A DNA stretch of 27,278 nt from positions 1 through 27,278 of IMG/VR virus record IMGVR_UViG_3300049228_000050; one strand, given 5' to 3'. Of the stretch, positions 471 to 25,157 are shown piece after piece. Source of the DNA: a virus. Lineage: Duplodnaviria; Caudoviricetes. Made by a program: the position numbers and the translations under genes. How positions within the stretch are numbered: position 1 is the stretch's first letter; every line of letters begins with the position of its first letter. The notes under the pieces are model-generated. The model searched no databases and was not told the DNA's origin. It saw only the letters and a list, made by a program, of their open reading frames with translations.

Positions 471-1978
471 TATTCGCGCGCCTTAAACGTTGATGAGGCA
501 GCCGGCTTAGAGCCGCTGCCTTTGAACTGTTGCGCGCTATGCAAACTGATTTCATTATCGAATTCGCGATCGCTGATATCGCCTCGTCGATAAGCTTCCC
601 GAGCTTCTTCGCGCGTCGGATAGCGTGGCGGCGGGGTCTTCCCGTCTTGGATGTCGTAACGGTTGATGATTTCCGTCGCAACGCTTGCCGCATCGAAGTT
701 TGGATTGCTCACTGCGCGTTGGTAGTATTCGCGTAACGCAAGCCCGGCGACCAAATCGCTTCGTCCACGAATGCCCATCGCTAAATTACCGGGAATGACG
801 CCTAGCGCCTTATCGATAGTCCTGGCGCCCTCCTTGTAATCACGCGTTGTCGTCGCCGCCGCGCCTTTCTCTAGAATGGAGAGCAGCTTATCTCGCTCGT
901 CAGAATTGATCCCGGATGATGCGTCTAGCGCATTCAAGATATCTCCAACAGCAAGCTGTCCGCGATATGCTTTTTGCTCCATGGTGGCCGCTAATTCTGG
1001 ATCTCCTGGTCCGCCTTTCCGGCTGATGGCTTCTGCTGCATCTGCCAAGGTTTTGAACTGGTCGCCTCGGATCTCATTCTCTCGTAACGCTTCGTATAAA
1101 GCAGGCGGGGTGATATTGCCTTGGATAACTTCCGCGTAGTAAGTCCCGAAATTGAGATCCTGAACTTCTCGTGTCACTTTTCTGTTGTTGTTATCTTCTC
1201 GCTCGCGCTTAGAGATTTCTTCGTTGCGCATGGCTTCAGAGCGTTTTTCGGCATTCAGGATAATTCGTTGCCGCGTCTCGACGCTCATGTCCGCGTAACG
1301 ACCACCGTAGATGTCTTCTAGCACCTGGTCCGGCTCTGAATACACACGATAATTGAGATCATCTTCCGCGACCCCATCGACAAAGGCGCGGGCTTTCTTC
1401 TCGGCTTCTATTGGCGTGATGAACCCGGCCGATGCGGCGCCATGGATCATGGCTAGTGATTGCTGCATTAAGCGCGGGCGCTCCGGCAATTGCACCGAGG
1501 CGAGTTCCTGGCGTCGCTGCCATAGCTGGTTTTCTAGCGCGGCCTTAGACCACGCTATCTGATGCGTTGTCTGCGTTCTTTGCGCTTCAAGTAATTGCGT
1601 AGAGCTGTACTCGTAAATCTCCGCGCTTAACGCCGCCTGTGTCTGCGGATCATCAACACCGCCTAGTGTTTGCTCGCTGAGCTTATTTAGGACTTCGCCT
1701 GCCTCTTGCGCCAACGGCACTCCGTTACGCTCAAACGATGGATCGCTAGAGCGCTCTGCCCACCACGAAGAATACTGTTGCCGCAGCGACAGGGAGCGCA
1801 TCGCGATATCTGTCGTGCGCTTAGCCGCTTGTGATCTGGCCGCCAGTTCTAGCGTCGCCTTGCTCAGCACATCAAGCGCTTGTGCGGCTCCTTCTTGCTG
1901 AACACCAGCACCGCGCCGTATAACGCCGCCAGCGCTGTCTGGCTCCGGAACCTGGCGGGAATAGGTTTGAATTCTCAT
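470..1978 (-). CDS. Internal virion protein (gp15-like position), 502 aa
   Basis: Long helical Ala/Glu/Gln/Arg-rich ORF, coupled to both neighbours, downstream of the nozzle gene. Confidence 0.65.
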   Translation of the reverse strand: MRIQTYSRQVPEPDSAGGVIRRGAGVQQEGAAQALDVLSKATLELAARSQAAKRTTDIAMRSLSLRQQYSSWWAERSSDPSFERNGVPLAQEAGEVLNKLSEQTLGGVDDPQTQAALSAEIYEYSSTQLLEAQRTQTTHQIAWSKAALENQLWQRRQELASVQLPERPRLMQQSLAMIHGAASAGFITPIEAEKKARAFVDGVAEDDLNYRVYSEPDQVLEDIYGGRYADMSVETRQRIILNAEKRSEAMRNEEISKREREDNNNRKVTREVQDLNFGTYYAEVIQGNITPPALYEALRENEIRGDQFKTLADAAEAISRKGGPGDPELAATMEQKAYRGQLAVGDILNALDASSGINSDERDKLLSILEKGAAATTTRDYKEGARTIDKALGVIPGNLAMGIRGRSDLVAGLALREYYQRAVSNPNFDAASVATEIINRYDIQDGKTPPPRYPTREEAREAYRRGDISDREFDNEISLHSAQQFKGSGSKPAASSTFKARE

Positions 1979-4628: not shown

Positions 4629-6119
4629 CTAATTGCACATCACCGCGCCAATAGTCGGCGACGGCCCGAAGCGTTTACCGAAGTAGTCTACGCCTGCGAT
4701 GGGCGGCGCTTTGAAGGCCGCGTTACAGAGCGGGCTTGCGGCGGTTGGGCGGAAGCCTTCCGGGGTGGTGGGAGTTGTGTCGCCGGATAGGGTTGGATTA
4801 CTCCCGAGAGATCCGGCTTCAGAACTACAGCCAGCAATATAAGTGGCCACGGTTGAGAAATTCCCGCCGCAAATATTATTGCTATATTGGTTGGTTTCCC
4901 CGTCGGGATACATCAAATTATTGCCCCCTAGATAACTAGTGTTCGTACTGCCTATTTTAAGTCTCCATCCCGCTGATGCTGTACCCGTGTAATAGCAATT
5001 ATTGTTACGGTAAGTTACTTGATTCAAATCTGCAAAAAACTCAGCACATTCTTCCACGTTGACGAAGGAGTTGTTCAGAATCTGCATTGGCACGTTAAAG
5101 TCATCAGCAGAATTTGCTGTGAAACCGTATTTTGAATTCTCAACAACGTTCCCACGCATGATAAAAAAAGTTAAAGCTGTCGCCGCTGGGTCTGTAAAGT
5201 AAGTAAAAGCCGCATTAAAACCCTTAACGTAATTTGCGATTAATAAACAGCGCCCAGACGTACAACTGATGCCGTGATTAACAGTAAGTCGATTCCCGTT
5301 GTTGATGATTTTATTGTTGACAATAGAAGTCAACCCGGCTGTAGCCCCGACGATAATTGCTTGTTTAATTGCCGCCGTAGTCGTTGGCCATTTTATGGTG
5401 TTGTTGCTTATCGTCACGTCGCCATCAGCGTTGTAAACCTGAATAGCGTCGCCATTTACTCCGATAGTCGAAAAATTTGTAATGGTGGAATTGGAAATAT
5501 AAATCCCCCCGACTGTTGTATTGCCTGCGTAGATCGCATCTTCTCCGCATCCAGAAATGTTTGCCCGGTTTACGGTTATGGAATGCTTTTGCAACGCAAG
5601 GCAGACATACCCGCCGTTCCGCAGGATCACATCTTGCACGACGTTAAAACCAATTTGACTGCCGTTACTGGTGATAATAAAAAGGTAGCCGCCTGGGGTT
5701 TGTGCGCCGTTTTCGACGGTGATATTTTTTAGATCCAAGTAACTGGCATCTTGCGCCGGCTCACCGAAAGACAGCACCGGCTGAGCAACTCCATTCCCGT
5801 TCAAAGAACCCGGATTACCAGGGCAATCGCCACGCACCGTAATGTGTTGTGCACTGGTTCCGTTCTCGGAGAGAAAAAAAGTGGAATTAGAACTAACCGC
5901 TCCGCATACCCATACACTATCCCCCGCCCCTACGGCAGTCTCTATGCTAGCTGTGGTCCACCCCGTGGCTGCGTTAGCCTGAGAATTTCCGGAAAATGTA
6001 CCGCTACCGGTTTGAGATAAATAATAGTCTGCCGCGCCCGCACAGCGCATCAGCGCGACGGAAGCACACAACAGAACGGCGGTGATTACCGCGCCGCGCA
6101 GGGACCATATCTTGATCAT
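4629..6119 (-). CDS. Right-handed parallel beta-helix (pectate-lyase-like) protein with signal peptide and choice-of-anchor-Q-like C-terminus; possible depolymerase or adhesin, 496 aa
   Basis: Start reassigned to ATG 6119 (ATGA overlap with the upstream stop). Asn/Ile-rich repeats (ISNNTI, IVNNKII, ILNNSF), an N-terminal YYLSQTGSG motif and a C-terminal FRPTAASPLCNA...DYFG..F....IGA motif. Confidence 0.75.
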   Translation of the reverse strand: MIKIWSLRGAVITAVLLCASVALMRCAGAADYYLSQTGSGTFSGNSQANAATGWTTASIETAVGAGDSVWVCGAVSSNSTFFLSENGTSAQHITVRGDCPGNPGSLNGNGVAQPVLSFGEPAQDASYLDLKNITVENGAQTPGGYLFIITSNGSQIGFNVVQDVILRNGGYVCLALQKHSITVNRANISGCGEDAIYAGNTTVGGIYISNSTITNFSTIGVNGDAIQVYNADGDVTISNNTIKWPTTTAAIKQAIIVGATAGLTSIVNNKIINNGNRLTVNHGISCTSGRCLLIANYVKGFNAAFTYFTDPAATALTFFIMRGNVVENSKYGFTANSADDFNVPMQILNNSFVNVEECAEFFADLNQVTYRNNNCYYTGTASAGWRLKIGSTNTSYLGGNNLMYPDGETNQYSNNICGGNFSTVATYIAGCSSEAGSLGSNPTLSGDTTPTTPEGFRPTAASPLCNAAFKAPPIAGVDYFGKRFGPSPTIGAVMCN

Positions 6120-7756: not shown

Positions 7757-8620
7757 TTACGGCGTGCAGGCAATTTGAACAAGCTGCTCGTCTTCGATGC
7801 GCGTCGCCGCGAGGCTTGCGCAGACGTACACTTGTGTCGCGTTGCGTTTGTCACGTCGTGGGCCGATGTCGACCATGAGATCTTGACCCATGCCAACGCC
7901 AAGCGCTGCTTGCGTGTAAGCCAGGACTAGTCGGTTGCCTGAACCATCTAAAGTCAACCGCTGCGTGCGGATGAACTTGAAGCCCATGAACGTATCGATC
8001 GCCCCCTGCGCCAACGCCTTCACGGTATTGAAGTCGGACGATTTCACTTCGGTCGTGTTCAACAAGTCTGTTACCTGTTTTGCCGTCACGATAATGTGTC
8101 GCGGCAGATCTGGATCGACGTCCGCCGCATCAAGCAGCTCGCGTGCGCTCAAGAGTTTGGCGATGGTCAGTCCGGTTGCGGCTACGGCGACCTTTTGGCC
8201 TGCCGGTAATGCGGTAACAGTCGCGCCGCTCTGGCCTTCGTAGGCGTTACCGTTTGCAGCAGCAATGATCACATCATCAATCGAGCGGCCAACAGCCCAG
8301 CCACCGGACACCGCGTAATGGTTATCTGGCTGGTAAATGGTGCGAATGCGATCGATATTATCGATCAGATCAGCCCAATCCCAATCGGTCATCTCGGCGC
8401 GTCGGCGCGAATGCGGGGTGTTGGCTAGGGGGGTGTCTGCGTGGCGCGTGGTAATCTGCTGCGCCGATGTCGGACCAATTCGCTCGTAGTAGACCGTGCG
8501 GCCAACCACTGAGCCATCATTGCGAACCGTACCGAGTAGGCGCGAGCCTTTTTGCTGCGCCAACATGATCACGTTCGAGCGGTACATCTCGACGTGTGCT
8601 ACAGGGATCTGATTGGACAT
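7757..8620 (-). CDS. Major capsid protein, 287 aa
   Basis: LAQQKGSRL, RHADTP...TPHSRR, VKALAQGAIDTFMGFKF and ATRIEDE motifs; GGAGGA RBS; follows the scaffold gene. Confidence 0.93.
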   Translation of the reverse strand: MSNQIPVAHVEMYRSNVIMLAQQKGSRLLGTVRNDGSVVGRTVYYERIGPTSAQQITTRHADTPLANTPHSRRRAEMTDWDWADLIDNIDRIRTIYQPDNHYAVSGGWAVGRSIDDVIIAAANGNAYEGQSGATVTALPAGQKVAVAATGLTIAKLLSARELLDAADVDPDLPRHIIVTAKQVTDLLNTTEVKSSDFNTVKALAQGAIDTFMGFKFIRTQRLTLDGSGNRLVLAYTQAALGVGMGQDLMVDIGPRRDKRNATQVYVCASLAATRIEDEQLVQIACTP

Positions 8621-8768
8621 TGGTAGTCCTCCGAAAGTTGTTTAACAAACTCTCGAAGGACTACCCGATAGCGCGGACCCTTCTTACGGGTTTACGCCCG
8701 TCGCGTGGGTGCTTTCACCCGGTCTTCCGGACCCTTACATGGACTCCCCGGTTATGCATCTATATAAC
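8621..8768 (-). promoter_or_regulatory. Structured mRNA leader of the major capsid gene (several hairpins, RBS-sequestering stem)
   Basis: mRNA-sense stems GGGTG-AAAG-CACCC and ACGGG-CGTAAA-CCCGT, plus an 18-bp stem GGTAGTCCTTCGAGAGTT/AACTTTCGGAGGACTACC covering the SD. Confidence 0.75.
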
Positions 8769-9683
8769 CTAAGCCGCGCGGTCTTTCAAGGCAGCCATCT
8801 GCTGGAATAGATTTTCCATTTTCGAGACCAGCGGCTTGTGATTCGGATCGAGATTGTTTTTGTACGCGGGGTTACCCTGGATCTCGGCGATTTTCGCCTT
8901 AATCTCATCGAGCGAATCAGGCAACCCAAGATTGGGCCGCTGCCCTTGTACGATCCGATCCTCGCCAAGAAAATCGGCCACGCGCTCCATGTACTCAATG
9001 AGTAGCGGCGCATTGCCGAGCCCAACAGAATCGACTTGCTGCTTCAGCACTTCGCTGCGTTCCGCGCCTAGAATTGGCGTTAGCGTGCCCAGCGCTCGGC
9101 TAAGCCGCTGATCATATCCAGCGCCCCACTTTTCGCGCAGTTCATTCGCCGCTGACTCTTGCTGTGATTGCGCTTCTTGCGCCGCTGCCTTAATCGAGGC
9201 GAACCATTCCGCCCGCACGGCGGCAGCCTGTGTCGTCGATAAATTAGCTGTGTGCGCAATCGGCGCAAACCACTGATCAAGATTCCCCTGCACGTCGTTA
9301 GGCAAGCCCTCATCTGGCGTAAACTTATACGCGGTCGGCGCCTCTGGAACGCCTAGCCGCTGATAAAATGTCTTCCAGCCATCTGTATCATCGGGTCCCG
9401 GCATGCGCACCAGGCTCGGCACTTTCTCCGCGAGTCGCGCATCAAACTTTTTGATGTCATCCGGTCCCGCATCCGCACCGGGGATACGAATGCTTGCGCC
9501 GATCGCCTGTTGTGCATTGATGTAAGCTTTCGCCAGCCCGTCTGCATCCTTAATCCCAGTCTGCGCAATCGGATCTCGATAGTCGCTAGCCAAAGAATCA
9601 AGAAATCCGCCGCCAGTAGTGTTGCCGGCTACTGGGCTGCCGCCGTCATTCTGGTCGCCACCTGCGTTGTTGTCTTCGCTCAT
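8769..9683 (-). CDS. Capsid assembly scaffolding protein, 304 aa
   Basis: LAKAYINAQQAIG, FYQRLGVPE..Y, LREKWGAGYD and acidic N-terminus; between portal and capsid. Confidence 0.88.
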   Translation of the reverse strand: MSEDNNAGGDQNDGGSPVAGNTTGGGFLDSLASDYRDPIAQTGIKDADGLAKAYINAQQAIGASIRIPGADAGPDDIKKFDARLAEKVPSLVRMPGPDDTDGWKTFYQRLGVPEAPTAYKFTPDEGLPNDVQGNLDQWFAPIAHTANLSTTQAAAVRAEWFASIKAAAQEAQSQQESAANELREKWGAGYDQRLSRALGTLTPILGAERSEVLKQQVDSVGLGNAPLLIEYMERVADFLGEDRIVQGQRPNLGLPDSLDEIKAKIAEIQGNPAYKNNLDPNHKPLVSKMENLFQQMAALKDRAA

Positions 9684-9919
9684 AAGCTCCCCTGTTTTGC
9701 TGCTTCAACTATTGCCTGTAGAGCACGGATCACACTGCGCTGGCCCTCGACGTAATAAGCCCGGAATGGATGCGGGATATCGGCCGCCTCGATTTCTACC
9801 GACTCGCTCAACCGGTGGTGATAGACGCGCTCCATGTCTTCCAGTGCAATCGCGCCATTCGCGCTAGTGAACACATCCGCGTATACCCGCGCGATCCGCT
9901 CGCGCTCATCGCTCGTCAT
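9680..9919 (-). CDS. Bbp19-like small phage protein, 79 aa
   Basis: Y..VF.S.NG...LEDM...EGQRSV motif, between portal and scaffold. Confidence 0.8.
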   Translation of the reverse strand: MTSDERERIARVYADVFTSANGAIALEDMERVYHHRLSESVEIEAADIPHPFRAYYVEGQRSVIRALQAIVEAAKQGSL

Positions 9920-11529
9920 GCGGCCTGCATCTTCCCGGCCTTGCTCGCGAGATCAGCCGTCATTGCGATATCTTGTCGCTCCTGCATTGCTTGCTGTTGC
10001 TCTGCGCGCCCCTGGCGGATCGCGGCAACAGAATCATCGTCGCGCAACACCTCGGACGGGACGCCTTGTAGCAGAGCCGAGCGCTTTACCGCCTCATCCG
10101 CATCGAGTAAATCGAACGGCGAGGGATCGCCAGTCACCGCCGAGATATTGGCCGCCGTCTGGAATGCACGTTCGATTGCGATCACATCCGGCATTTGCTG
10201 TGCTCTGGCAAGCGGACCAATGTATTCGATATCGATTTCTTGATCCGTTAACTCTTGCGGTGGCGGCGGTAACATGCCGGCCCGCATCATCAGGCCAAAC
10301 GTGCGCTCGATAATCGGATTCAGCAACTCTGCCTGTAGCCGCCCGAGTGTCGGCCCCATCAACCGTTCCATCAGCTCCCATCGGATCTGGATCTCAGTCG
10401 CGGTCATGGGCTGAGACTGTGGCGGCGGAAGGCGTAGATGATCAGCAAAAAAACAGGATCGGATCTGAGCCTTGAGGTCTTGTATATCGAACTGCGCGAG
10501 ATCCATTCTGGCGCCGCTCGTGAGGTACTCCAACCGCGCATCGCGCTTGATGTAGGTGATCCCGTTCGGCACGGTGCGCACGGAACCAATAACGCCTTTG
10601 TCCTCAATCACCAGCGGCGGATCAATATCCTTCGCCGCTGCCCGGTGCATCATGCGCTTGGCAGAATTGAGGCTACGAATATCAGGCATCGCGGTGAATG
10701 CTGGGCCACGGCCCCAACCATCATCGTCCGCCGCAACGCGCCAGCGTGTGATGCTGGCCGGCATTTCCTCGTACCCGCCTTCGGCGATAATCACCTTATC
10801 CGTAACATTCACGTAGCACGATGCGTAGGGCATATTCGCTTGTCCACGCTTTCTTGGATCGTATTTCTCCCGTGGATAAATGGAGTGGATAATATCCAGC
10901 GGACGATGCTTATCCGTTGGCTGTGCATTTTCGGCTAGCGCTTGCTTTACGGTATCGCCGAGCATCTTTTTCCCTGGATGTTTTTCAAAGCGCTCAATGA
11001 TCTGAAGCGGCGACATTTTGAACTCACGGTATACGCTACTCGCGCGCCCCGCCGCATCCATTGTAAAAGTAAACTCGCCGACCGGCCACGCCATGAAATG
11101 CAATCGACCATTGACCATTTCGGTGTACGGGCAAGCGGTCGAAAAACCAATGAGATCTAGATACACCTCATCGATAGCCTGGTAGAAATTCGATTTCGCG
11201 ATTGCGCCTAACATCAAGTCCCGGCAATCCTCTAACCAATCACGTATCGCGCGCTCAGCGTTTAGTTCTTCGTTGGCCGTGCCAAGTGAAAACCACTTAG
11301 ACGCCTGCGGTGTGAGAGTTGAGGCTAAGTTGCCGGCTAATATTTCCGCCGCCTCTACGGCCGTCGAATCGTATCGCTCGACGCCCCGGCGCTGCCCCGG
11401 AGTAGAGAAGCGCGTGACGTTGCTCCTATCCGGCAACACGTAGTCCACGACCTCCTGAAAAAACGTCGCGACAACAGATTTCCGCGCCTTTAAATAGGCG
11501 TTTTCATCGATGACTTTTTGCGCATCCAT
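9916..11529 (-). CDS. Portal protein (head-tail connector, T7 gp8-like), 537 aa
   Basis: YDSTA, RW....GWGRGP...A.PD, MTATEI..R.....LGP..GRLQ.ELL.P and IEYIGPLARAQ motifs. Confidence 0.95.
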   Translation of the reverse strand: MDAQKVIDENAYLKARKSVVATFFQEVVDYVLPDRSNVTRFSTPGQRRGVERYDSTAVEAAEILAGNLASTLTPQASKWFSLGTANEELNAERAIRDWLEDCRDLMLGAIAKSNFYQAIDEVYLDLIGFSTACPYTEMVNGRLHFMAWPVGEFTFTMDAAGRASSVYREFKMSPLQIIERFEKHPGKKMLGDTVKQALAENAQPTDKHRPLDIIHSIYPREKYDPRKRGQANMPYASCYVNVTDKVIIAEGGYEEMPASITRWRVAADDDGWGRGPAFTAMPDIRSLNSAKRMMHRAAAKDIDPPLVIEDKGVIGSVRTVPNGITYIKRDARLEYLTSGARMDLAQFDIQDLKAQIRSCFFADHLRLPPPQSQPMTATEIQIRWELMERLMGPTLGRLQAELLNPIIERTFGLMMRAGMLPPPPQELTDQEIDIEYIGPLARAQQMPDVIAIERAFQTAANISAVTGDPSPFDLLDADEAVKRSALLQGVPSEVLRDDDSVAAIRQGRAEQQQAMQERQDIAMTADLASKAGKMQAA

Positions 11530-18809: not shown

Positions 18810-19115
18810 ATGAGCAAATACCGCATGGACGATAATACGATCGTCGACACTACCCGAGCCACTCATACGTGGGAGGAGGACTCCCGCTGGGATGGATCCA
18901 ATCACATCAGTGTGGCCACTGGCTCGCAATGGGACCACGAAGATCTATACCGTTCGCGCAAGGGCCGGTACTACATCGTGCACAGCTCGCAATGGCAGGG
19001 CTCGACGCCGTGCGCCGAATGGATCAGCCACCGCGCTGCAGCCGCGTGGCTGCTGAATAACGCGCACGAGATCCCGGCGGAACTCGCGGATACCGCCGAA
19101 CTGATCTCGGAGTAG
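18810..19115 (+). CDS. Hypothetical early protein, 101 aa
   Basis: AGGAG RBS; DT..A...E.LYRS.KG.YY...IS...A..W pattern seen in small phage proteins. Confidence 0.8.
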   Translation: MSKYRMDDNTIVDTTRATHTWEEDSRWDGSNHISVATGSQWDHEDLYRSRKGRYYIVHSSQWQGSTPCAEWISHRAAAAWLLNNAHEIPAELADTAELISE

Positions 19116-19120
19116 GCGCA

Positions 19121-19291
19121 ATGATAATTGACTACGCCCCCAAGCAATGGCTGCGCCGCGACTGGTACGCCGCTGACAGCACCGAGCCTGCGACCTGGTG
19201 TGATCGCTGCACTAGATTCCTTGGCCTGGTTTTCATCCTCGCGCCAGCCGTGATTTTTTGGTGCGAGGAATATTTGAGAGCGAGGAATTGA
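19121..19291 (+). CDS. Small membrane protein, 56 aa
   Basis: Manually translated MIIDYAPKQWLRRDWYAADSTEPATWCDRCTRFLGLVFILAPAVIFWCEEYLRARN; fills the gap between neighbours. Confidence 0.55.
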   Translation: MIIDYAPKQWLRRDWYAADSTEPATWCDRCTRFLGLVFILAPAVIFWCEEYLRARN

Positions 19292-19292
19292 C

Positions 19293-19622
19293 GTGACCAG
19301 CATGACAGACGATCTAATCACTGCCCTCGACGCGTGCGGCTATGTGGCGCACGCATATAGACCGAATAATTTAGAGCGCAGCGCATGCTACGCCGTAGGC
19401 GTAAATAATGATGCCGACGCGCGACGGCTAATCAATGATATCGAGGGATGGTGCATCGCAAATAACCGCCTTTCTTTCACCGGTCCGAAAATTGATCTAC
19501 TCGGGCTAGGCATCATCGTATCCTGGCCGCAGTATCCGATTGCGCAGGCCGCAGAAAGCGATCCAGACCGTCGATATTACGAGCGCGAATACCTCGCAGA
19601 GCCGAGGAGCGCGAAACCATGA
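19293..19622 (+). CDS. Hypothetical protein, 109 aa
   Basis: GAGGA RBS, GTG start, coupled to the next gene. Confidence 0.7.
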   Translation: MTSMTDDLITALDACGYVAHAYRPNNLERSACYAVGVNNDADARRLINDIEGWCIANNRLSFTGPKIDLLGLGIIVSWPQYPIAQAAESDPDRRYYEREYLAEPRSAKP

Positions 19623-20356
19623 TCGCCTATCACGGCCGGCAGTCGATAAAAGATGACGTGCTCGCCAAACTAGCTGCGCACCGCGCCGCTGATGAGCTGA
19701 TCCAGGACTATGGATATTGGAGGGACGGCAAAGGCTGTGCGGTTGGCTGCACTATCGAGGGCAGTAGCCACGCCAAATACGAAACGGAATTCGGAATTCC
19801 ACAAGCGCTCGCTCGAATCGAGGACTCTATTTTCGAGGCGTTGCCAGTAGCTCAGGCGCGGCTTTGGCCTGAGCGATTCATGGGTGCAATTCAGCCAGGC
19901 GCTGATCTGTCGCTTGTAGTCTGGAAATTTCTTCGCCGGATACTAGATGCGGGGGTTACTGCGGGAATATCTGATCCGATTGTGGCCCCAGCTATCCATA
20001 AAGTGAACGATCTATTAGAGATCCTCGGAAACGGCGGCGACATATCCGCCGCGTGGGCCGCGAGGGCCGCCGAGAGGGCCGAGAAGGCCCCCGAGAGTGC
20101 ACCGTGGGCCGAGAGTGTCGCCGCGTGGGCCGAGAGTGCCGCCGCGTGTGCCGCGAGGGCCGCCGCGTGTGCCGAGAGGGCCGCCGAGAGTGCAACGTGG
20201 GCCGCGAGTGCCGCCACGTGTGCAACGTGTGCCGCGAGTGCCGCCGTGATGGCCGCGAGGGACGGGAGGTCCGCAAGGGGCGAGAAAGCCGCCGCGCGTG
20301 CAACGTGGGTTCGGTTCTCGAACGTCATGATCGAATTATTGGAGGCCGCGCAATGA
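19619..20356 (+). CDS. Phage protein with GCAVGC N-domain and Ala-rich repeat tract, 245 aa
   Basis: H..AD..IQ..YW..GKGCAVGC...H..YE...GIP..LA..ED.IFE.LP pattern; ATGA coupling at both ends. Confidence 0.8.
   Translation: MIAYHGRQSIKDDVLAKLAAHRAADELIQDYGYWRDGKGCAVGCTIEGSSHAKYETEFGIPQALARIEDSIFEALPVAQARLWPERFMGAIQPGADLSLVVWKFLRRILDAGVTAGISDPIVAPAIHKVNDLLEILGNGGDISAAWAARAAERAEKAPESAPWAESVAAWAESAAACAARAAACAERAAESATWAASAATCATCAASAAVMAARDGRSARGEKAAARATWVRFSNVMIELLEAAQ
20048..20309 (+). repeat. Degenerate tandem coding repeat (9-bp units in 21- or 30-bp blocks)
   Basis: GCCGCGTGG, GCCGAGAGT, GCCGCGAGG and GCAACGTGG units separated by GCC. Confidence 0.85.
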
Positions 20357-20715
20357 ACGACTTTCAAAAATACCTATCGAGCCTCAACGTAAACGCTTGG
20401 ACAGAGCTCACACATAAACAAGTGTGCCGAGCGTGCGCGCTTTGGATCGCAGAAAATCGCCACGATTTCGAGAATGCGATTTGGCAAATCGAGCCACAAG
20501 AAGCGCTAGCTGACGCCGTGATGGCTAGCTTCGACTGCCTCGGTCGCGTAGATGTCGAGGGCGTGAAAGTCGCCAATGCGGATATTGCAACGCTCATCAA
20601 GCAGGCTGTAATCGAGCAGGCACAAATCAGCGCCGAATCGTGGCTAAAAATGCGGCGTGGATGGTTGTTTGAGTTGGGCGCGAGAAAACTTAATCCCATG
20701 GAGAACTTAATATGA
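20353..20715 (+). CDS. Hypothetical protein, 120 aa
   Basis: True start ATG 20353 (GGAGG RBS, ATGA overlap); MNDFQKYL... Confidence 0.7.
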   Translation: MNDFQKYLSSLNVNAWTELTHKQVCRACALWIAENRHDFENAIWQIEPQEALADAVMASFDCLGRVDVEGVKVANADIATLIKQAVIEQAQISAESWLKMRRGWLFELGARKLNPMENLI

Positions 20716-21701
20716 GCGGATTTCGCAAAGCAAAAGCCGAACAAGCGGCGCTAAAAATAGGCGTATACGGCCCGCCCGGTAGCGGGAAAACCTTCACGTC
20801 GCTGCTGCTGGCCGAGGGGTTAGCGGCGCTTAGCAAGAAGCGTATCGCGTATGTGGATACCGAGCACGGTACGGATTTTTATTGCAAAACCGTTTCGACG
20901 CGGCAAGTACACCCAGAGGCTTTCGATTTCGACGCTCTGTACACAAAGAGCATCACAGAGACTCTACAGTCTGTGCGTGCACTGTCGCCCGATGATCATT
21001 CCGTGATCGTCCTGGACTCGATCACCCACTTGTGGGAGGCGTGCATCGCTGCATACGGCGGTCGGCAAACGAGCGCAGGAACGATCCCTATGCACGCATG
21101 GGGCAAGATCAAAAAACCCTACAAAGACTTGATGTCGGTCCTATTGTCCTCGCCCATGCACGTGATTTTTTGCGGGCGCCAGGGCACTGAGTACTCGACC
21201 AACGCGGAGACGGAAGAGTTGCGCGCGGTCGGGGTAAAAATGAAGGCAGAAGGCGAGACACCATACGAGCCCCACATCCTGATCCGCATGGAAGCTATAA
21301 GGCCGCAACGCACGAACGAACTCGCGCAGATAGTTGCGTATGCAGAAAAAGATCGAACGGGCGTATTAGCTGGCCGCTCTTTCGTGAATCCCACTTTTGA
21401 GACGTTGGCTAAACCTTTGTTAGCGCTCCTCGGGGGATCTCAGGCTCAAATCCCAACCAATGACGAGACGGCGGCACAAGACGCCGAGAGAATCACCGAG
21501 AATGAAAAATCGAGAATCGAACAATCTGCCCGCTTGCTTGCAGAGTACCAAGCAAAAATAACACTTTGCGATAGCCCGGATGCGCTAAAGGCGATCGGAA
21601 AAGATATTACGCCACAACTTAAATCTCAAATGATTCCGGCAGATGTTGCTGATTTGCGCTCTGCTTATCAAGAGCGTGAGCGTGATATTCAACGAGGCTA
21701 A
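20712..21701 (+). CDS. AAA_24-type ATPase, Sak4-like recombination protein, 329 aa
   Basis: GPPGSGKT, YVDTE, IVLDSITHLWE and KDRTG motifs. Confidence 0.85.
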   Translation: MSGFRKAKAEQAALKIGVYGPPGSGKTFTSLLLAEGLAALSKKRIAYVDTEHGTDFYCKTVSTRQVHPEAFDFDALYTKSITETLQSVRALSPDDHSVIVLDSITHLWEACIAAYGGRQTSAGTIPMHAWGKIKKPYKDLMSVLLSSPMHVIFCGRQGTEYSTNAETEELRAVGVKMKAEGETPYEPHILIRMEAIRPQRTNELAQIVAYAEKDRTGVLAGRSFVNPTFETLAKPLLALLGGSQAQIPTNDETAAQDAERITENEKSRIEQSARLLAEYQAKITLCDSPDALKAIGKDITPQLKSQMIPADVADLRSAYQERERDIQRG

Positions 21702-21706
21702 ATTAA

Positions 21707-22063
21707 ATGACTCAGCACAACAGCAAGACTGAGGCGGGGCCGCATTGCTCACATTGCCGCTTTCCTTTGCCAGCAAGTGACAGCGGGCTGCGCCACTACG
21801 GCACGCACACGGCGCACCAAGAGAATGAGTGCCTGCGGTTGCTGCATGCGGAAATTGAGCGACTGAGTGCGGCGCTGCGGAAGGTGAACGACCAAGCGGA
21901 ACACTTCGAGCGGCATTGGTACTTGGCAAAAGAAGACGCCGACCGCTACGAATTTGCCAAGACGCTTACGGGGCAAGTGGTGACGATGGAGACATTCAAG
22001 AACCGTGGCGGCGCTGAACTTGACCAGGCTCTCGACGACGCGATGGCCGAATTTTGTCCGTGA
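21707..22063 (+). CDS. Hypothetical mosaic phage protein, 118 aa
   Basis: AEIERL coiled segment and DADRY...LD.A.D.AM C-terminal pattern. Confidence 0.7.
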   Translation: MTQHNSKTEAGPHCSHCRFPLPASDSGLRHYGTHTAHQENECLRLLHAEIERLSAALRKVNDQAEHFERHWYLAKEDADRYEFAKTLTGQVVTMETFKNRGGAELDQALDDAMAEFCP

Positions 22064-22087
22064 TTGAGTAAGCGAGAAGGAGTAACG

Positions 22088-22168
22088 ATGGAAACGACCA
22101 TGGGCAGACTGAACCGCGAGGTCGATGCCATTGAGGAGCGCCCGCCTTTGGGGCGTCCCCTCGAATGA
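22088..22168 (+). pseudogene. 26-aa mini-ORF or gene remnant running into an attC-like site
   Basis: Strong AAGGAG RBS; METTMGRLNREVDAIEERPPLGRPLE. Confidence 0.4.
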
Positions 22169-22178
22169 CTTGTTAGAG
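22121..22178 (-). mobile_element. attC-like site, one end degenerate
   Basis: TTGAGGAGCGCCC-GCCTTTG-GGGCGTCCCCTCGAA-TGACTT-GTTAGAG; the minus strand reads CTCTAACAAGTCATTCGAGG, a typical attC start. Confidence 0.7.
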
Positions 22179-22198
22179 CGCATTCTTGGGAGAAAAAC

Positions 22199-22408
22199 AT
22201 GGCATGGATCGATAGGCAGAAGCAAGAGCCAAAGATTGGACAGACCATCATTGCTTGGGGCGAAGGTGATGGACCGTGCGGCTCGGTGGCCTGCTTTTGG
22301 GACTACGACGCTTGGCTTGATGTTTCGGATAGACGCGACGTATCATTTCGGTATTGGATGCCAGCCCCGGAATCGCCTTACGAGGCTGCGGCCTCGCTCC
22401 CCCTCTAA
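22199..22408 (+). CDS. DUF551-like protein, 69 aa
   Basis: MAWI.....P.....I...YWMPAPESP; GGGAG RBS. Confidence 0.75.
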   Translation: MAWIDRQKQEPKIGQTIIAWGEGDGPCGSVACFWDYDAWLDVSDRRDVSFRYWMPAPESPYEAAASLPL

Positions 22409-22422
22409 ATGACTGGTTGGGC
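22375..22422 (-). mobile_element. Eroded attC-like site
   Basis: GCCTTAC...CCCTCTAAATGACTGGTTGGGC; the right half resembles the 22121 site. Confidence 0.55.
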
Positions 22423-22435
22423 CTCAATGATAAAC

Positions 22436-22502
22436 GAATCTCCCCGCCCCGGGGCTGTTGTTCGACCGGGCGCACGCGACCCCGCTAGCGTGATGATGGC
22501 TG
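22436..22502 (+). repeat. 67-bp direct repeat, copy 1
   Basis: GAATCTCCCCGCCCCGGGGCTGTTGTT...GCGCACGCGACCCCGCTAGCGTGATGATGGCTG, near-identical to 24491-24557. Confidence 0.92.
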
Positions 22503-22555
22503 AGCGAGAGTCGCGCCGCCGGTTTCTGGGACTGGATTGACGCATACCACCTACT

Positions 22556-22750
22556 ATGACGCCTAACGATCCAAGCTCATCGTCGGGGCAGCGCGTGGTT
22601 AAAGAGCGTCGAACGATTCATTTGCTTCGGTGCGGGCAGACGCTGTGCGGCAAAACCGGACCGCCATCAAATTGGGGAGCAGATCACGCTTGGGCAGAAG
22701 ATCATGACCGCAAGCACGTCAACTGCCCAGGATGCCTCAATGCTCGCTAA
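22556..22750 (+). CDS. Small Cys/His zinc-binding protein, 64 aa
   Basis: IH......TLCG...VNCPGC. Confidence 0.65.
   Translation: MTPNDPSSSSGQRVVKERRTIHLLRCGQTLCGKTGPPSNWGADHAWAEDHDRKHVNCPGCLNAR
22561..22604 (-). mobile_element. Internally deleted attC-like site
   Basis: GCCTAAC-GATCCAAGCTCA...GCAGC-GCGTG-GTTAAAG. Confidence 0.6.
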
Positions 22751-23072
22751 CGAAGGGTTGGGCGGCTGGGTGCCAGTGGCAGAACGCATGCCAGACCACG
22801 GCGTGACTGTGCTGGTGTGCTACATGAACAGAGCCGGCAAATGGCGACGCATCCGTGCAAAGTGGGTCGCCGCGAAAACCAGTGAATCGAGCAGCGAAAG
22901 TGATATCGGCGAGTACGACGAGGCGGCTGATTGCTACTACGACCCCGAAAACTGGTATGAGCAAATCGACAATTGGCCCGAGTACACCGCCTGCACAGTT
23001 GGCGAAGGGCAGGTGACGCACTGGATGCCTCTGCCTGAGCCGCCTAACGTCGAAGTTAAGCGGGCGCCGTAA
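22740..23072 (+). CDS. DUF551-family protein
   Basis: WVPVAERMP.....VLV...VTHWMPLPEPP. Likely start ATG 22740 (alternative 22704). Confidence 0.85.
   Translation: MLANEGLGGWVPVAERMPDHGVTVLVCYMNRAGKWRRIRAKWVAAKTSESSSESDIGEYDEAADCYYDPENWYEQIDNWPEYTACTVGEGQVTHWMPLPEPPNVEVKRAP
22745..22763 (-). mobile_element. Collapsed attC remnant (R boxes only)
   Basis: CGCTAAC-GAAGG-GTTGGGC. Confidence 0.55.
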
Positions 23073-23100
23073 GGCGCTCCGCTTGGACGTAGGGTTAGCC
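23042..23100 (-). mobile_element. Intact 59-bp integron attC site (top strand = minus)
   Basis: Plus strand folds GCCTAAC-GTCGAA-GTTAAGCGG-GCGCC-GTAA-GGCGC-[T]-CCGCTTG-[G]-AC-GTAGG-GTTAGCC: R and L boxes, unpaired spacer, extrahelical G and T. Confidence 0.88.
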
Positions 23101-23141
23101 AGCACCCGCACAAACGCTGGCATGCAACTACAGGAACCACA

Positions 23142-23420
23142 ATGGAAACGATGATTCAACCGAAGGTGACAGGCTACCGCCAACTGAGCGAGGCCGAAGT
23201 GGCGCTGATGAACGAGGGCAAGGCGCTGGCCGAAGCCTGCGGCACCTACATTGCCAAGCTGCGCACGCACCCTAGCGCACACCCGATGGGCCACAACGCG
23301 CCCACCGAGCCCGGCCAATTGCCGACGCTGGACCAGCGATGGGTAAGCATTGGTGCCACCGACATTCAGCGCGGATTCATGGCCGTGATTCGCGGCATTG
23401 CGCAACCAACCACCTTCTGA
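23142..23420 (+). CDS. acb2: Acb2-family anti-CBASS cyclic-oligonucleotide sponge, 92 aa
   Basis: KVTGYRQLSEAEVALMNEGK and RWVSIGATDIQRGFMAVIRGIAQPTTF match the recalled Acb2 signature (GYR.LS..E...MN..K / RW..I..TD.Q.G.MA..R.IAQP..F). Confidence 0.88.
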   Translation: METMIQPKVTGYRQLSEAEVALMNEGKALAEACGTYIAKLRTHPSAHPMGHNAPTEPGQLPTLDQRWVSIGATDIQRGFMAVIRGIAQPTTF

Positions 23421-23427
23421 GGATGCC

Positions 23428-23616
23428 ATGACAACCTGGGCCGACGAGTACGCGACGATGCTGGAGGACTGCGAGAAGCGCAGCGAGAAGCTGACCGATT
23501 GGGAGTGTGGATTCGTGGATTCGTTGCAGCGGCAGATTGCCGATGGTCGCCGGCCCAGCGCGAAACAGGTGGAGACGCTGGACAACATCTGGGAGCGCGC
23601 CACGGCGCGTGGATAG
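23428..23616 (+). CDS. Small helical phage protein, 62 aa
   Basis: GAGGA RBS; LTDWE.GFVDS......S.KQ...L..IW pattern. Confidence 0.75.
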   Translation: MTTWADEYATMLEDCEKRSEKLTDWECGFVDSLQRQIADGRRPSAKQVETLDNIWERATARG

Positions 23617-23645
23617 TGCCGCCTAACAAGATTTAATCATCCGAA

Positions 23646-24551
23646 ATGACAAATAAATCTCCCCGCCCCGGCGTCGGCAGTCTATTCTCCGGGGTCGGAG
23701 GCTTTGACCTCGGCCTAGAGCGCGCGGGAATGTCGATCTCGTGGCAAAGCGAGATAGATCCATACGCGTCGGCCGTGCTGCAAAAACATTGGCCGGGAAC
23801 ACCGAATTTAGGCGACATAAAAGAGATCATAAATGCACCAACTGTCGATATCCTATGCGGGGGATTCCCTTGCCAACCCCACTCAGTCGCCGGGAAGCAG
23901 CGCGGCAAAGAAGACGAACGCCACCTGTGGCCGGAGTACATGCGACTGGTGCGAGCAATTCGACCGCGTTGGGTGCTGGCTGAGAACGTGCCTGGGATCA
24001 GAACTACCGCAGCCGATGAGGTCCTTGGCGATTTGGAAGCGGAAGACTACGCCGTCTGGCCGCTCGTGGTGGGTTTGTACGCCTTCGGCGCGCAGCATGA
24101 ACGCATGCGCATCGTCTTTGTTGCCCTCGATAAGCGCACAGAGTTATGGGAGCAACCGCGGCGGCTCTGCAGGGCGCGTGGGGAAGGACCGGCCGAGCCT
24201 AAAGACCTTGGCACTGCGCGGCATGATGCTGCCCACGATCAAATCAGTGGACGGCCATCCGAAGGGCAACGGCGGACTGAATCGGAATTCGCCGGGGTTG
24301 GATGCGTTGGCGAAAGCTGGATTGCTGAGCGCACAGAATGGGGGCGATCTGAACCCCCGGTGGTGCGACGGCTTCATGGGATTCCCCCCCGGCTGGTCAG
24401 AGCTCGACGAAGAGAGCGCATCAAGTGCCTTGGGAATTCCTTCAGCCCAATCCACGCGGAGGCACTCGGCAGAATGATCATGCGATTTGAGAATCTCCCC
24501 GCCCCGGGGCTGTTGTTAACCGAGGCGCACGCGACCCCGCTAGCGTGGTGA
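23646..24551 (+). CDS. C5-cytosine DNA methyltransferase, large (alpha) polypeptide, 301 aa
   Basis: Motifs I (SLFSGVGG), IV (GFPCQ), VI (ENV), VIII (HERMRI) and X (LGNS). Confidence 0.92.
   Translation: MTNKSPRPGVGSLFSGVGGFDLGLERAGMSISWQSEIDPYASAVLQKHWPGTPNLGDIKEIINAPTVDILCGGFPCQPHSVAGKQRGKEDERHLWPEYMRLVRAIRPRWVLAENVPGIRTTAADEVLGDLEAEDYAVWPLVVGLYAFGAQHERMRIVFVALDKRTELWEQPRRLCRARGEGPAEPKDLGTARHDAAHDQISGRPSEGQRRTESEFAGVGCVGESWIAERTEWGRSEPPVVRRLHGIPPRLVRARRRERIKCLGNSFSPIHAEALGRMIMRFENLPAPGLLLTEAHATPLAW
23833..24477 (+). CDS. Nested alternative-frame methyltransferase small (beta) polypeptide; true start uncertain
   Basis: LPS/LPT-type TRD-like repeats and LNPRWCDGFMGFPPGWS (motif IX-like), which is missing from the main frame. 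Confidence 0.7.
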   Translation: MHQLSISYAGDSLANPTQSPGSSAAKKTNATCGRSTCDWCEQFDRVGCWLRTCLGSELPQPMRSLAIWKRKTTPSGRSWWVCTPSARSMNACASSLLPSISAQSYGSNRGGSAGRVGKDRPSLKTLALRGMMLPTIKSVDGHPKGNGGLNRNSPGLDALAKAGLLSAQNGGDLNPRWCDGFMGFPPGWSELDEESASSALGIPSAQSTRRHSAE

Positions 24552-24557
24552 TGGCTG
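24491..24557 (+). repeat. 67-bp direct repeat, copy 2
   Basis: Near-identical to 22436-22502. Confidence 0.92.
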
Positions 24558-24732
24558 GATGCCAGAGGGCGATACCGGAATAGTTTCGGGAGCGGGAATG
24601 AATTGGAATCCCGGTGTAGCAGTAATGCGCGCCCGGGCGAGACGCAATCGGTAAATGCGTTGACGATCGGAGAAATGAGTGCCGACGTACTCCGCCGGAT
24701 CGTATGCCGGCCCTCACAGTGAGGGGAAATGA

Positions 24733-24969
24733 ATGAAAGAACAAACGCGACTAGACGTACTCGCACTGTGCGATGCAGCAGAACGCATGCGAGATGCTGC
24801 TAATAATCTTTGGTGGGCGAATAATGTTTCCGAGGGAAACACGATAGGCGAAGGCGTGGCGCCGACCATTGAAGAAGCGGAACTTGCACATGGGGAGGCT
24901 TTCGAAAAATTAGCCAAAGCTGAATTTAGTGTTAGGCGATGCTTGAATAAGGAAGGGGCGCATAAATGA
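24733..24969 (+). CDS. Hypothetical protein, 78 aa
   Basis: GAGGGG RBS; next ORF follows at its stop. Confidence 0.6.
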   Translation: MKEQTRLDVLALCDAAERMRDAANNLWWANNVSEGNTIGEGVAPTIEEAELAHGEAFEKLAKAEFSVRRCLNKEGAHK

Positions 24970-25157
24970 CCCGCGCATCAAAGCTAGTAGCGCGGCAAGC
25001 CGAAGACGAGGGCCTATGGTCTATTCCGTTTGATCGTCTTGAAACTATTCACGAGGCGTGTTTACGAATCGCTTTACGAAAGCTCCATGCGGCAGTGGAA
25101 GCTGACGAAGCGGATAAGAAGTCCCGCTCAGAGCCTAACGCCCCGAGCGGGACGTGA
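24966..25157 (+). CDS. Small phage protein, 63 aa
   Basis: LV.RQAEDEGLW...EA.L..ALR.LHAAVE pattern; AAGGAAGGGG upstream. Confidence 0.7.
   Translation: MTRASKLVARQAEDEGLWSIPFDRLETIHEACLRIALRKLHAAVEADEADKKSRSEPNAPSGT

Follow-up and report, generated by a model that had tools for sequence, protein, structure and literature searches.

A decayed, integrase-less row of inverted integron-type cassettes in a phage genome

Introduction

How does a phage come to carry a row of integron cassettes, and which integrase put them there? Integrons are now regarded as bacterial stores of anti-phage genes, and the origin of integron cassettes is an open question. The locus considered here consists of five integron-type cassettes in a row (22121-23627), mostly decayed, in a phage window of 27,278 nt; "the window" denotes this whole stretch of analysed DNA, the source of which is the 75% complete record IMGVR_UViG_3300049228_000050. 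An earlier note had described an integrase-less cassette array of inverted polarity, and this observation is confirmed in substance: all six site positions and all five pairs of cassette ends that it listed are present in the sequence. The reading put forward here, to which a probability of roughly two in three is assigned, is that of a decayed five-cassette array in a phage early operon, derived from a phage-type integron that lost its integrase.

attC sites and their erosion

The sites (Table 1) were scored with two covariance models, R1, built from 26 bacterial attC sites only, and R2, trained on phage attC. The covariance-model check suggested for 23042-23100 bears out an intact attC: the site scores 40.4 bits with the bacteria-only model R1 (E 6e-7) and 52.4 bits with R2, and reaches significance on the + strand only. 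At 22123-22172, R1 gives 17.3 bits (E 0.044) and R2 19.5 bits (E 0.002); the left R box is degenerate here, GTC replacing AAC, and the extra G and T are kept. These two sites are attC. As the earlier note had it, the extra-helical G and T of both lie on the + strand, matching the Shewanella plasmid integron attC L219:7155-7214 and the L221 sites. The arms of site 5 resemble the former at 86% over 43 nt, and its annotated cassette genes lie on the strand opposite to the attC reading. Orientation was calibrated on the aadA7 attC primer (Qi supplement) and on annotated Shewanella and class 1 arrays.

Table 1. Coordinates of the array and its neighbours in the window
Feature	Coordinates	Strand	Description
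Sak4-like gene	20712..21701	+	ssDNA annealing protein / AAA ATPase, phrog_1366 + phrog_124
Site 1	22117..22178	+	attC at distal array end; near-complete hairpin
Cassette 1 (22123-22380) gene	22199..22408	+	69 aa, DUF551-like lead; reads through site 2
Site 2, eroded	22375..22422	+	left box TAC vs AAC, left arm gone
Cassette 2 (22381-22566) ORF	22409..22540	+	43 aa, no family
Cassette 3 (22567-22750) ORF	22556..22750	+	64 aa, no family
Site 3, eroded	22561..22604	+	both R boxes and outer arms remain, hairpin middle deleted
Cassette 4 (22751-23047) gene	22740..23072	+	DUF551, PF04448 49.5 bits, E 8e-13
Site 4, eroded	22745..22763	+	entire hairpin gone, 5-nt spacer joins R boxes
Site 5, intact attC	23042..23100	+	attC bottom strand on +; predicted crossover A23047/C23048
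Cassette 5 (23048-23626) gene a	23142..23420	+	Acb2 family sponge
Cassette 5 gene b (ORF62)	23428..23616	+	62 aa, conserved phage protein, no known family
Terminal site	23621..23645	+	R box GCCTAAC and following sequence; decayed attI or secondary site
C5 DNA methyltransferase	23646..24551	+	not a cassette

Of the eroded sites claimed earlier, the one at 22121 is thus recovered; those at 22375, 22561 and 22745 fall below significance in both models (R1 gives 7.8 bits at 22745 and does not list the other two; R2 gives 6.4 bits at 22561). R boxes together with an L-arm hairpin are complete at 23042-23100, partial at 22123-22172 and lacking at these three. Sites 2, 3 and 4 are deletion remnants. 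Site 2 retains its right arm and R box; site 3, compared by eye, resembles both arms of the intact attC L211:3629-3757 minus the middle; the deletion at site 4 fits slippage between two AACG copies, and the same product is predicted for 11 of 94 phage attC. When a right-arm weight matrix from these 94 attC was run over both strands of the whole window, 22155, 23077, 22399 (site 2) and 22740 ranked 1, 2, 3 and 5.

DNA folding alone singles out 23036-23106 (z -2.5 and -3.0 against shuffles), the other four sequences, folded as one or both strands, being no better than shuffles. An early hairpin heuristic was dropped for its many false positives, among them window 482-535, absent from the output of both covariance models. 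Across 93 phage attC, in an alignment that was fitted to the model, 95% of cells are paired and 9 of 14 pairs show compensatory changes. An Rfam search of the window returned no family. Taken as at least two attC in the same orientation within a few kb and without a nearby intI, a CALIN is present, its two covariance-model matches lying 0.9 kb apart; one is below 20 bits, so that under the 20-bit threshold of Qi et al. a single window site would count.

Cassette genes and their orientation

The cargo is of phage type and includes an anti-defence family, as proposed. Gene a of cassette 5 matches the Acb2 family PF24729 with 51 bits (cut-off 27; E 1.6e-13) and PDB 8h2j (E 4e-11). Its residues Y12, K27, R66 and T73 align with Y11, K26, R67 and T74 of PaMx33 Acb2, of which the first two serve dinucleotide and the last two trinucleotide binding, according to the available text of PMC10312549; the window protein is predicted to block bacterial CBASS immunity. 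ORF62, which accompanies Acb2, matches viral hypothetical clusters in the atlas. The best atlas match of the cassette 1 gene is a DUF551 cluster (0.91), Pfam and PHROG searches being without match.

Genes and eroded sites are interwoven. The cassette 3 ORF begins just upstream of site 3, crosses it and terminates with the TAA contained in the following R box. In cassette 4, the DUF551 protein takes its N-terminus from what is left of site 4 and has its stop codon in the site 5 loop. Its attC-like N-terminal peptide recurs in many homologues, and the site 5 R box falls in the reading frame of the conserved DUF551 C-terminus. No intact copies of cassettes 1-4 were found; among viral contigs, cassettes 1 and 3 have a single weak match apiece. 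A match to L211 was rejected as an attC-encoded peptide only, the L211 array being canonical. A ribosome site and ATG lie inside 20 of 39 long phage hairpins; the hairpin in front of a gene would often provide the ribosome site and start codon.

In a canonical cassette, a gene on the top strand is followed by its own attC. In the window the attC comes first and the genes lie on the bottom strand: R1 reads the gene-carrying + strand as the attC bottom strand, which upholds the inverse polarity claimed. In ten phage arrays, a PHROG match was obtained for 21 of 64 bottom-strand ORFs and for none of 64 top-strand ORFs; 43 of the 64 tested cassette ORFs have no family, and at IntI-bearing loci 9 of 29 bottom-strand ORFs have a match. 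Bacterial control cassettes (n=33) are canonical, with 22 on the top strand, 3 on the bottom and 8 unclear. Polarity calls from the longest ORF were discarded as noisy and replaced by other polarity tests. Among the latter, ORF-based calls were unclear in 26/56 and 21/45 phage cassettes, and 7/45 cassettes at IntI-bearing viral loci came out as canonical. No description of inverted phage cassettes was found in the literature searched; only canonical phage CALINs are known from it (Qi 2023, PMC9892861), and the inverted layout is absent from the available text of that study.

Integrase, terminal site and origin of the array

Neither an intI nor a recognisable attI is present in the window, and a search of the whole 75% complete record for tyrosine recombinases, IntI included, was negative, in agreement with the earlier note. 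The slot between the array and the convergent lysis-side genes lies wholly inside the window, and intI is absent there. It is occupied by the C5 methyltransferase, with a 16-bp direct repeat on both sides, where IntI-bearing phages keep intI and a phage integrase. The terminal GCCTAAC at 23621 is present, in a position held in relatives by attI or by the following attC. The sequence after it does not resemble attI by profile: scored on a profile from 25 viral attI-like sites it takes rank 81-173 among 672, and a gapped comparison places it at 90 of 672. Descent from a complete integron is therefore argued from the relatives of the window. A TTA five bases past the terminal AAC, as in L001 and L033, is a weak resemblance that was noticed afterwards by eye.

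In the complete phages L245 and L260 the slot behind the array is taken by an intact IntI (482 and 473 bits; cut-off 265), in addition to a separate phage integrase. Inverted arrays occur in complete temperate phages together with an intact IntI and a conserved attI-like site. At 54 IntI loci, 114 of 118 attC matches lie on the intI strand, and in 25 of the 40 loci with upstream matches a conserved terminal site lies no more than about 160 nt from the intI match. IntIs that adjoin arrays of this kind group in one clade, separate from the sampled bacterial IntIs, the viral loci having been chosen as best matches and the bacterial sample being narrow, with one phylum, one Shewanella plasmid and 80 metagenome matches. 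The contig L005, which has the window's Acb2 cassette, bears a truncated intI (5299-5607) adjoining its terminal site, and this remnant falls in the phage-associated clade. Against GTDB genomes the fragment has a single 43% match; that scan required exact 8-residue words and is thus weak evidence of absence. The intact phage IntIs, the L005 remnant and the phage clade make host IntI, the enzyme proposed in the earlier note, the less likely one. A terminase search of 32 records was set aside: it returned 4, and a terminase detected by hmmscan in L245 had escaped it. An array search of 50,697 annotated phages gave no match, and no close relative with the same backbone as the window phage was found.

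To judge from these relatives, the window holds a probable decayed member of this phage integron group, now without an integrase, and its history may be pictured as follows. IntI would act on the + strand in its folded form and cut it at AA/C in the left R box; a cassette would then consist of a hairpin and the gene or genes behind it. Cassettes would enter at the attI end, beside intI, and the phage early transcript would read the whole row, towards attI and into intI; the genes would face backwards for this reason. After the loss of intI, slippage would have deleted the older hairpins without breaking reading frames, thereby fixing the genes. Early-promoter control, part of the earlier note, is inferred here from gene order; a promoter scan of the window did not add to it, giving 5 sites versus 3.4 +/- 1.9 expected by chance, and in this chance-level scan no minus-strand promoter-like site was seen at the terminal (Pc) position.

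An unlikely alternative supposes a lineage that at no time possessed an integrase. The first cassette would have been placed by a host chromosomal IntI at a secondary (attG) site of the early operon, others would have stacked onto it, and only those that chanced to be co-oriented with phage transcription would have been kept. This would suit a terminal site that is not attI-like by profile, the diverse terminal sites of integrase-less relatives, and the near-complete genomes L022 (99%) and L034 (100%), which have arrays and no TIGR02249 match, so that integrase-less arrays do exist as had been claimed. In addition, IntI places cassettes at genomic GWT sites (available text of bioRxiv 10.1101/2022.09.11.507474), phage attC are IntI1 substrates with bottom-strand preference (Qi 2023, PMC9892861), and the plasmid collection yields a bacterial attC as the nearest one. 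However, a secondary insertion flips the entire cassette and leaves the gene on the top strand relative to its own attC; the sampled bacterial arrays are canonical; the cargo is phage-type, and no attC-bounded Acb2 cassette was found in plasmids; and L005, which shares cassette 5, keeps part of an intI that belongs to the phage-associated clade.

Breakpoints and cassette movement

The relatives indicate how units of the array may have moved. Cassette 5 is common to the window and the viral contigs L001 (90%) and L005 (86%); homology spans 23041/23038-23627, stops at the same CTAAC boxes in both, and gives way to neighbours that differ from those in the window, so that gene-content breakpoints among relatives do fall at R boxes. 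In runs X3, X4, X7, X14 and X17, contigs either stop or begin to differ at 23091-23093, 23618 or 23627; from this run comparison 16 of 24 small-share runs, including all RNA runs, were left out. Run X1 is identical to the window over 22059-23233 and 23343-24700 and is not counted as independent, since it may be the source sample. Cassette 5, alone among the five, thus recurs as one unit in varied contexts with breakpoints at R boxes; the array as a whole is mostly fixed, in contrast to the shuffling proposed earlier, because an intact attC is left only at the Acb2 cassette. If provided in trans, an IntI would still be expected to take that cassette out or put it in.

The same cassette-5 body stands behind five different hairpins in five phages. 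The hairpin differs in 11 of 21 pairs with a common downstream body and is shared in 0 of 6 pairs with only the upstream flank in common; in one cassette family an identical hairpin in 5 contigs has 5 different upstream genes. The 11 of 21 hairpin swaps are not explained by IntI if it crosses over solely at the left box. They are in line with a second alternative, less probable still than host insertion, in which the attC origin is real and modules now move mainly by short-homology Sak4 annealing at R boxes or arms, hairpins serving as translation starts and recombination landmarks. The Sak4-like gene lies directly upstream of the array and precedes arrays also in L163, L181, L198 and L245; long hairpins often hold translation starts, as noted above; a full attC stands in front of just 10 of 64 listed Acb2 loci, with the Acb2 and ORF62 pair of L024 and L032 having none; and a 67-bp non-attC direct repeat joins the cassette 2 ORF to the methyltransferase end (24491-24557). 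On the other hand, right-hand breakpoints fall at CTAAC with merely 5-7 nt in common, the extra-helical bases are conserved, as are the compensatory pairs, an intact IntI adjoins such arrays, and cassette ends remain complementary, which only circular excision needs.

This complementarity, reported earlier for all five cassettes, holds for cassettes 2-5 (6, 5, 7 and 6 of 8 positions), while the ends of cassette 1 reach just 2/8 ungapped and pair with two gaps. The chain of complementary ends was equalled in 1 of 500 shuffled windows under a scoring devised after the sites had been seen; in an earlier, stricter test a chain of length 3 was equalled by 3 of 60 shuffles and was not significant. 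That stop codons and DUF551 Pro-Pro-Asn codons mimic CTAAC in GC-rich DNA that folds anyway is very improbable: three sites fail both models, the site 5 R box lies in a coding frame and the end-pair tests are uneven, but the E values at sites 5 (6e-7) and 1 (0.002-0.04), four of the top five right-arm matches and the exact breakpoints in relatives refute chance at both of these sites and for cassette 5, leaving it still possible for site 2 and the ends of cassette 1.

Implications

The system by which bacteria shuffle genes probably has a mirror-image counterpart in phages; if so, the same recombination chemistry operates on both sides of the phage-bacterium arms race. At about even odds, temperate phages own an integron lineage within the early operon, with a phage-specific IntI clade and an attI of its own, that captures and trades mirror-image cassettes of ordinary phage genes; different hairpins on one gene pair, known also without attC, would represent cassette birth and the window domestication by in-frame hairpin deletion. 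That its cargo includes counter-defence genes (Acb2, Lar-like, methyltransferases, Mom-like) is put forward with equal reserve. Cassette membership would offer a rule for finding new anti-defence genes among the many family-less ORFs, and the occurrence of one gene pair without attC, with several attC and with attC being erased bears on cassette origin. Placed in a host integron, an inverted cassette would be antisense to the promoter there, and the cassette pools of phage and host may stay separate for this reason.

Comparison with known systems

The window resembles the phage CALINs of Qi 2023 (PMC9892861), integrase-less attC clusters with methyltransferase cargo. Those have the typical array layout, with one divergent-site case, and derive from integrons of host chromosomes or class 1 elements; bottom-strand genes, a phage IntI clade and an anti-CBASS cassette are not mentioned in the available main text of that study. 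Sites 3 and 4 recall the domestication of attG cassettes, in which folded attC are lost by replication slippage, and both kinds of cassette lie outside an integron platform; as far as the available text of bioRxiv 10.1101/2022.09.11.507474 goes, attG cassettes are canonical and sit in bacterial chromosomes, whereas the window has five stacked cassettes of one polarity. With PaMx33 Acb2, as given in the available text of PMC10312549, the window protein shares the family match and the four binding residues; unlike it, the putative window Acb2 sits in an attC-bounded two-gene cassette.

Class 1 and chromosomal bacterial integrons share with the phage arrays the attC structure with its covariation and the complementary cassette ends. 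In the relatives of the window, as in bacteria, the attC bottom strand is the intI strand, the array lies upstream of intI, and the IntI passes TIGR02249; complete bacterial integrons differ from the window itself in having intI and attI. In the phage arrays, unlike bacterial integrons, genes lie on the bottom strand behind the attC and are co-oriented with intI, start codons often fall in the hairpin, and the cargo consists of accessory genes of phages; these would be expressed as part of the phage operon, in the direction of attI, in contrast to the promoter at attI in bacterial integrons.

Array and attC sites

The window spans the entire 27,278-base virus record, which is estimated to be 75% complete and carries head, portal, tail and terminase genes of podophage type on the minus strand and an early operon on the plus strand, which encodes a Sak4-like annealing protein, small ORFs and a C5 methyltransferase; the cassette array lies in this operon, with Sak4 on one side and the methyltransferase on the other. 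Profile searches with TIGR02249 and PF00589 found no match anywhere in this 75%-complete record, in agreement with the earlier note, which had seen no intI. A 67-bp direct repeat (91%) occurs in cassette 2 and, a second time, in the methyltransferase gene at its 3' end. Its 16-bp core recurs at the start of that gene, placing direct repeats on both sides of the methyltransferase; no other locus of the comparison set had the core. Upstream, imperfect 21-bp tandem repeats encode an Ala-rich tract in a 245-aa ORF.

The attC sites were scored with a covariance model of 26 attC from bacterial genomes and plasmids adjoining IntI, in bottom-strand reading, its strand being verified against annotated cassette genes of two bacterial arrays (L219, L221) and the aadA7 attC primer in the PMC9892861 supplement. 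Run on the window unfiltered, with matches reported up to E 5, the model gave seven matches, of which four are background in structural or Sak4 genes. The attC proposed earlier at site 5 was borne out on the proposed strand: site 5 is intact and site 1 nearly so, and the top plasmid match for site 5 is an attC of a Shewanella integron. A second model, trained on 94 phage attC sites, gave sites 2, 3 and 4 no significant score in the window. A right-arm matrix placed sites 1, 5, 2 and 4 at ranks 1, 2, 3 and 5 among all window positions; the left-arm matrix listed site 5 alone and picked up no eroded site. Of the four eroded sites claimed before, site 1 is nearly intact, and sites 2-4 stay below model significance. 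Site 3 looks like an intact attC of locus L211 that kept both arms and lost its middle, although L211 was located via the peptide encoded by site 3, leaving only the right arm as independent evidence. Site 4 is what slippage between a pair of AACG copies should leave behind, a product that 11 of the 94 phage attC would also yield.

Two further observations concern site 1. A contig of sequencing run X1 matches the window at 22120-22187 and diverges just beyond the site, hinting at its presence elsewhere in another context. Just before it, a ribosome site with its start resembles the Acb2 leader, and an ORF from 22089 runs as a 26-codon frame through the hairpin; this leader-like start may be the remnant of an earlier cassette.

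Positions of array features and of hairpins on the cassette 5 body (window coordinates unless a locus is named)
Feature	Position	Strand	Bacteria-only model	Phage-site model
Early operon	~18810-25157	+
245-aa ORF	19619-20356
21-bp tandem repeats	20025-20310
Leader-like start before site 1	22078-22097
Site 1, attC	22123-22172	+	17.3 bits, E 0.044	19.5 bits
Site 2	22375
67-bp repeat, cassette 2	22436-22502
Site 3	22561
Site 4, remnant	22745-22763		7.8 bits
Site 5, attC	23042-23100	+	40.4 bits, E 6e-7	52.4 bits
Acb2 leader	23132-23151
Terminal box	~23621-23627
16-bp repeat core	23656
67-bp repeat, methyltransferase	24491-24557
Cassette 5 hairpin, L001	1747-1815
Cassette 5 hairpin, L005	3903-3960
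Cassette 5 hairpin, L034	3868-3962
Cassette 5 hairpin, L045	3891-3960

Over the eight bases past GTT, the ends of cassettes 1-5 match at 2, 6, 5, 7 and 6 positions. The complementary ends claimed for every segment are seen without gaps in cassettes 2-5; those of cassette 1 align only if two gaps are allowed. The chain score of cassettes 2-5, 8 under a scoring devised after the data had been seen, was attained by one of 500 shuffles; in a first, stricter chain test the observed value was attained by 3 of 60 shuffles and fell short of significance.

Gene polarity

Polarity was called from ORFs in segments of 80-1000 nt with an end match of at least 5/8. Among 33 cassettes of bacterial arrays, 22 were top-strand, 8 unclear and 3, all short segments of ~160 nt, bottom-strand. 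Arrays reached via window proteins (n=56) gave 26 bottom, 4 top (three in L211) and 26 unclear, and arrays beside IntI in viral loci (n=45, a set that also took in two metagenome loci contributing no countable cassettes) gave 17 bottom, 7 top and 21 unclear. Antisense ORFs abound in such DNA, so the longest ORF per strand was scanned for family matches instead. In 64 cassettes from 10 arrays, PHROG matches fell on 21 bottom-strand ORFs (three being Acb2, the search bait itself) and on none of the 64 top-strand ORFs, nor on any of six in the window. The other matching cargo comprises Lar-like restriction alleviation, methyltransferases, PAPS reductase and Mom-like proteins. The inversion of the genes relative to attC, as the earlier note had it, is real.

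Breakpoints and mobility

Among 80 viral loci with Acb2 relatives, L001 and L005 share with the window only one stretch, bounded by the left box of site 5 and the terminal box at 23627, each with a different preceding gene and an intact attC after the shared cassette. Contigs from five of eight sequencing runs compared (X3, X4, X7, X14, X17) have match edges at 23091-23093, 23618 or 23627, and several pass from these edges into other attC arms; for cassette 5, breakpoints in gene content fall at the boxes. Intact DNA copies of cassettes 1-4 were not found elsewhere. Many DUF551 homologues start with a peptide resembling the translated attC right arm. At L163:1290-1360, after a 73%-identical Sak4, the array opens with half an attC, the right arm only, encoding the N-terminus of the first gene.

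In a second Acb2 cassette family, an identical hairpin occurs in five contigs behind five different upstream genes. Pairwise comparison of 178 sites in 53 loci found the same hairpin in none of six pairs with the upstream flank alone in common and in 10 of 21 with the downstream body alone in common, all ten from this second family. The hairpin hence travels with the gene behind it and belongs to the downstream gene, as plus-strand cutting at the left AAC would predict. The 11 downstream-body pairs that differ in hairpin count against this simple picture. The cassette 5 body carries five different hairpins in five phages, a variety that hints either at swapping at the right box or at cassettes having been born more than once; four other bodies likewise carry differing hairpins. 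A full attC precedes Acb2 in 10 of the 64 Acb2 loci listed, most Acb2 genes having no attC at all, and the Acb2 and ORF62 pair occurs without attC boxes at L024:1241-1741 and L032:3900-4387. L024 retains a short leader that in the window follows the right box. L034:3868-5114 holds two near-identical long attC in tandem with the same leader behind each, the first preceding Acb2.

A probable phage integrase lineage

TIGR02249 matched in 3 of 16 array-bearing records, never above cut-off, and two array-bearing records that are 99-100% complete had no match, so integrase-less arrays exist. In L005, the N-terminal part of an IntI lies on the plus strand right beyond the last cassette. The full-length relatives of this IntI, 67 proteins with 64-86% identity, stand apart as a group from other IntIs, which are at 65% or mostly under 60%. 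With an alignment of 61 group members as query, 201 viral stretches matched and 80 were kept; attC were sought in 54 IntI loci (49 of the 80 kept, four metagenome loci and L214), where the bacteria-only model found 118 sites, 114 of them on the intI strand. In 25 of 40 loci with upstream attC matches, the last cassette is closed by a conserved site without a hairpin, at most ~160 nt from the intI match; this site is likely attI. Of 28 such IntI-bearing records examined, 13 reach 90% completeness or more. Both L245 and L260 show terminal repeats and phage genes, along with IntI at 482 and 473 bits, respectively, and a separate phage integrase behind intI. In L245, Sak4-like, SSB and Gam genes are followed by a cassette, the terminal site, intI and the integrase, after which come lysis and structural genes in convergent orientation.

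A tree of 182 IntIs (truncated sequences left out; the mislabelled entry L218 being the integrase of bacterial L213) places all 25 loci labelled as phage array type in one clade (support 0.977), which contains no bacterial genome or plasmid sequence; the canonical-array loci L305, L326, L329 and L340 lie outside it. With a similarity-picked viral set and a narrow bacterial sample, phage specificity of this clade is no more than likely. A second viral IntI group (L298, L302 and tree neighbours) lies apart, both of its callable cassettes being bottom-strand. L402 (KX853513.1, Virus Rctr41k; coordinates 4680-5678 and 8415-10101), a phage in the public record, has an IntI-like gene annotated as xerD, with four weak attC-like matches downstream on the minus strand, that is, in canonical polarity.

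Sequence past 23627 did not match a profile of 25 attI-like sites (rank 81-173 of 672 AAC positions), and the slot of intI in L245 and L260, which lies fully inside the window, is occupied by the methyltransferase with its short flanking direct repeats. That the window lineage once had intI and attI and lost them is thus an inference drawn from relatives; alternatively, a different IntI may have seeded the array at a secondary site. Integrase-less terminal sites (L001 4526, L013 5202, L022 4962, L033 7148, L085 6186) show TTA/ATA five bases past AAC, one base shorter than in the two bacterial attI seen (L219, L221); the window's terminal site has TTA at the same five-base distance.

Proposed mechanism and domestication

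Recombination would follow the usual IntI chemistry, acting on the bottom strand in its folded form; the difference lies in cargo layout. In front of each gene stands its attC, and 20 of 39 long hairpins include both an ATG and a ribosome site. Judged from gene order, genes pointing to attI and intI would let the early transcript cover array and integrase together. Four of the window's five hairpins are damaged, with frames running through them (ORF69 via site 2, ORF64 via site 3, DUF551 starting at site 4 and reaching into the site 5 loop), a pattern that fits domestication; slippage has been proposed as a route of attC loss (bioRxiv 10.1101/2022.09.11.507474, accessible part). An intact attC survives in cassette 5 alone. 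The Acb2 of this cassette shows all four ligand residues named in PMC10312549 and is therefore predicted to be anti-CBASS. The observation of the earlier note is confirmed, and its interpretation, that phages use host IntI to shuffle accessory and anti-defence cassettes, is supported in part.

Comparison with known systems

Accounts of inverted cassettes or of a phage IntI lineage were not found in the literature searched, which takes in only a minority of subscription papers, of figures and of bioRxiv supplements. Integrons in bacterial phage defence are the topic of bioRxiv 10.1101/2024.07.02.601719, as far as its accessible part goes. Qi et al. 2023 (PMC9892861, accessible part) described CALINs in phages and activity of IntI1 on phage attC; the layouts described there are typical and the integrons host-derived, whereas the window array is inverted. 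The array behaves as one of integron cassettes and has attC for its sites, but it falls short of a complete integron and departs from canonical cassettes in gene orientation.
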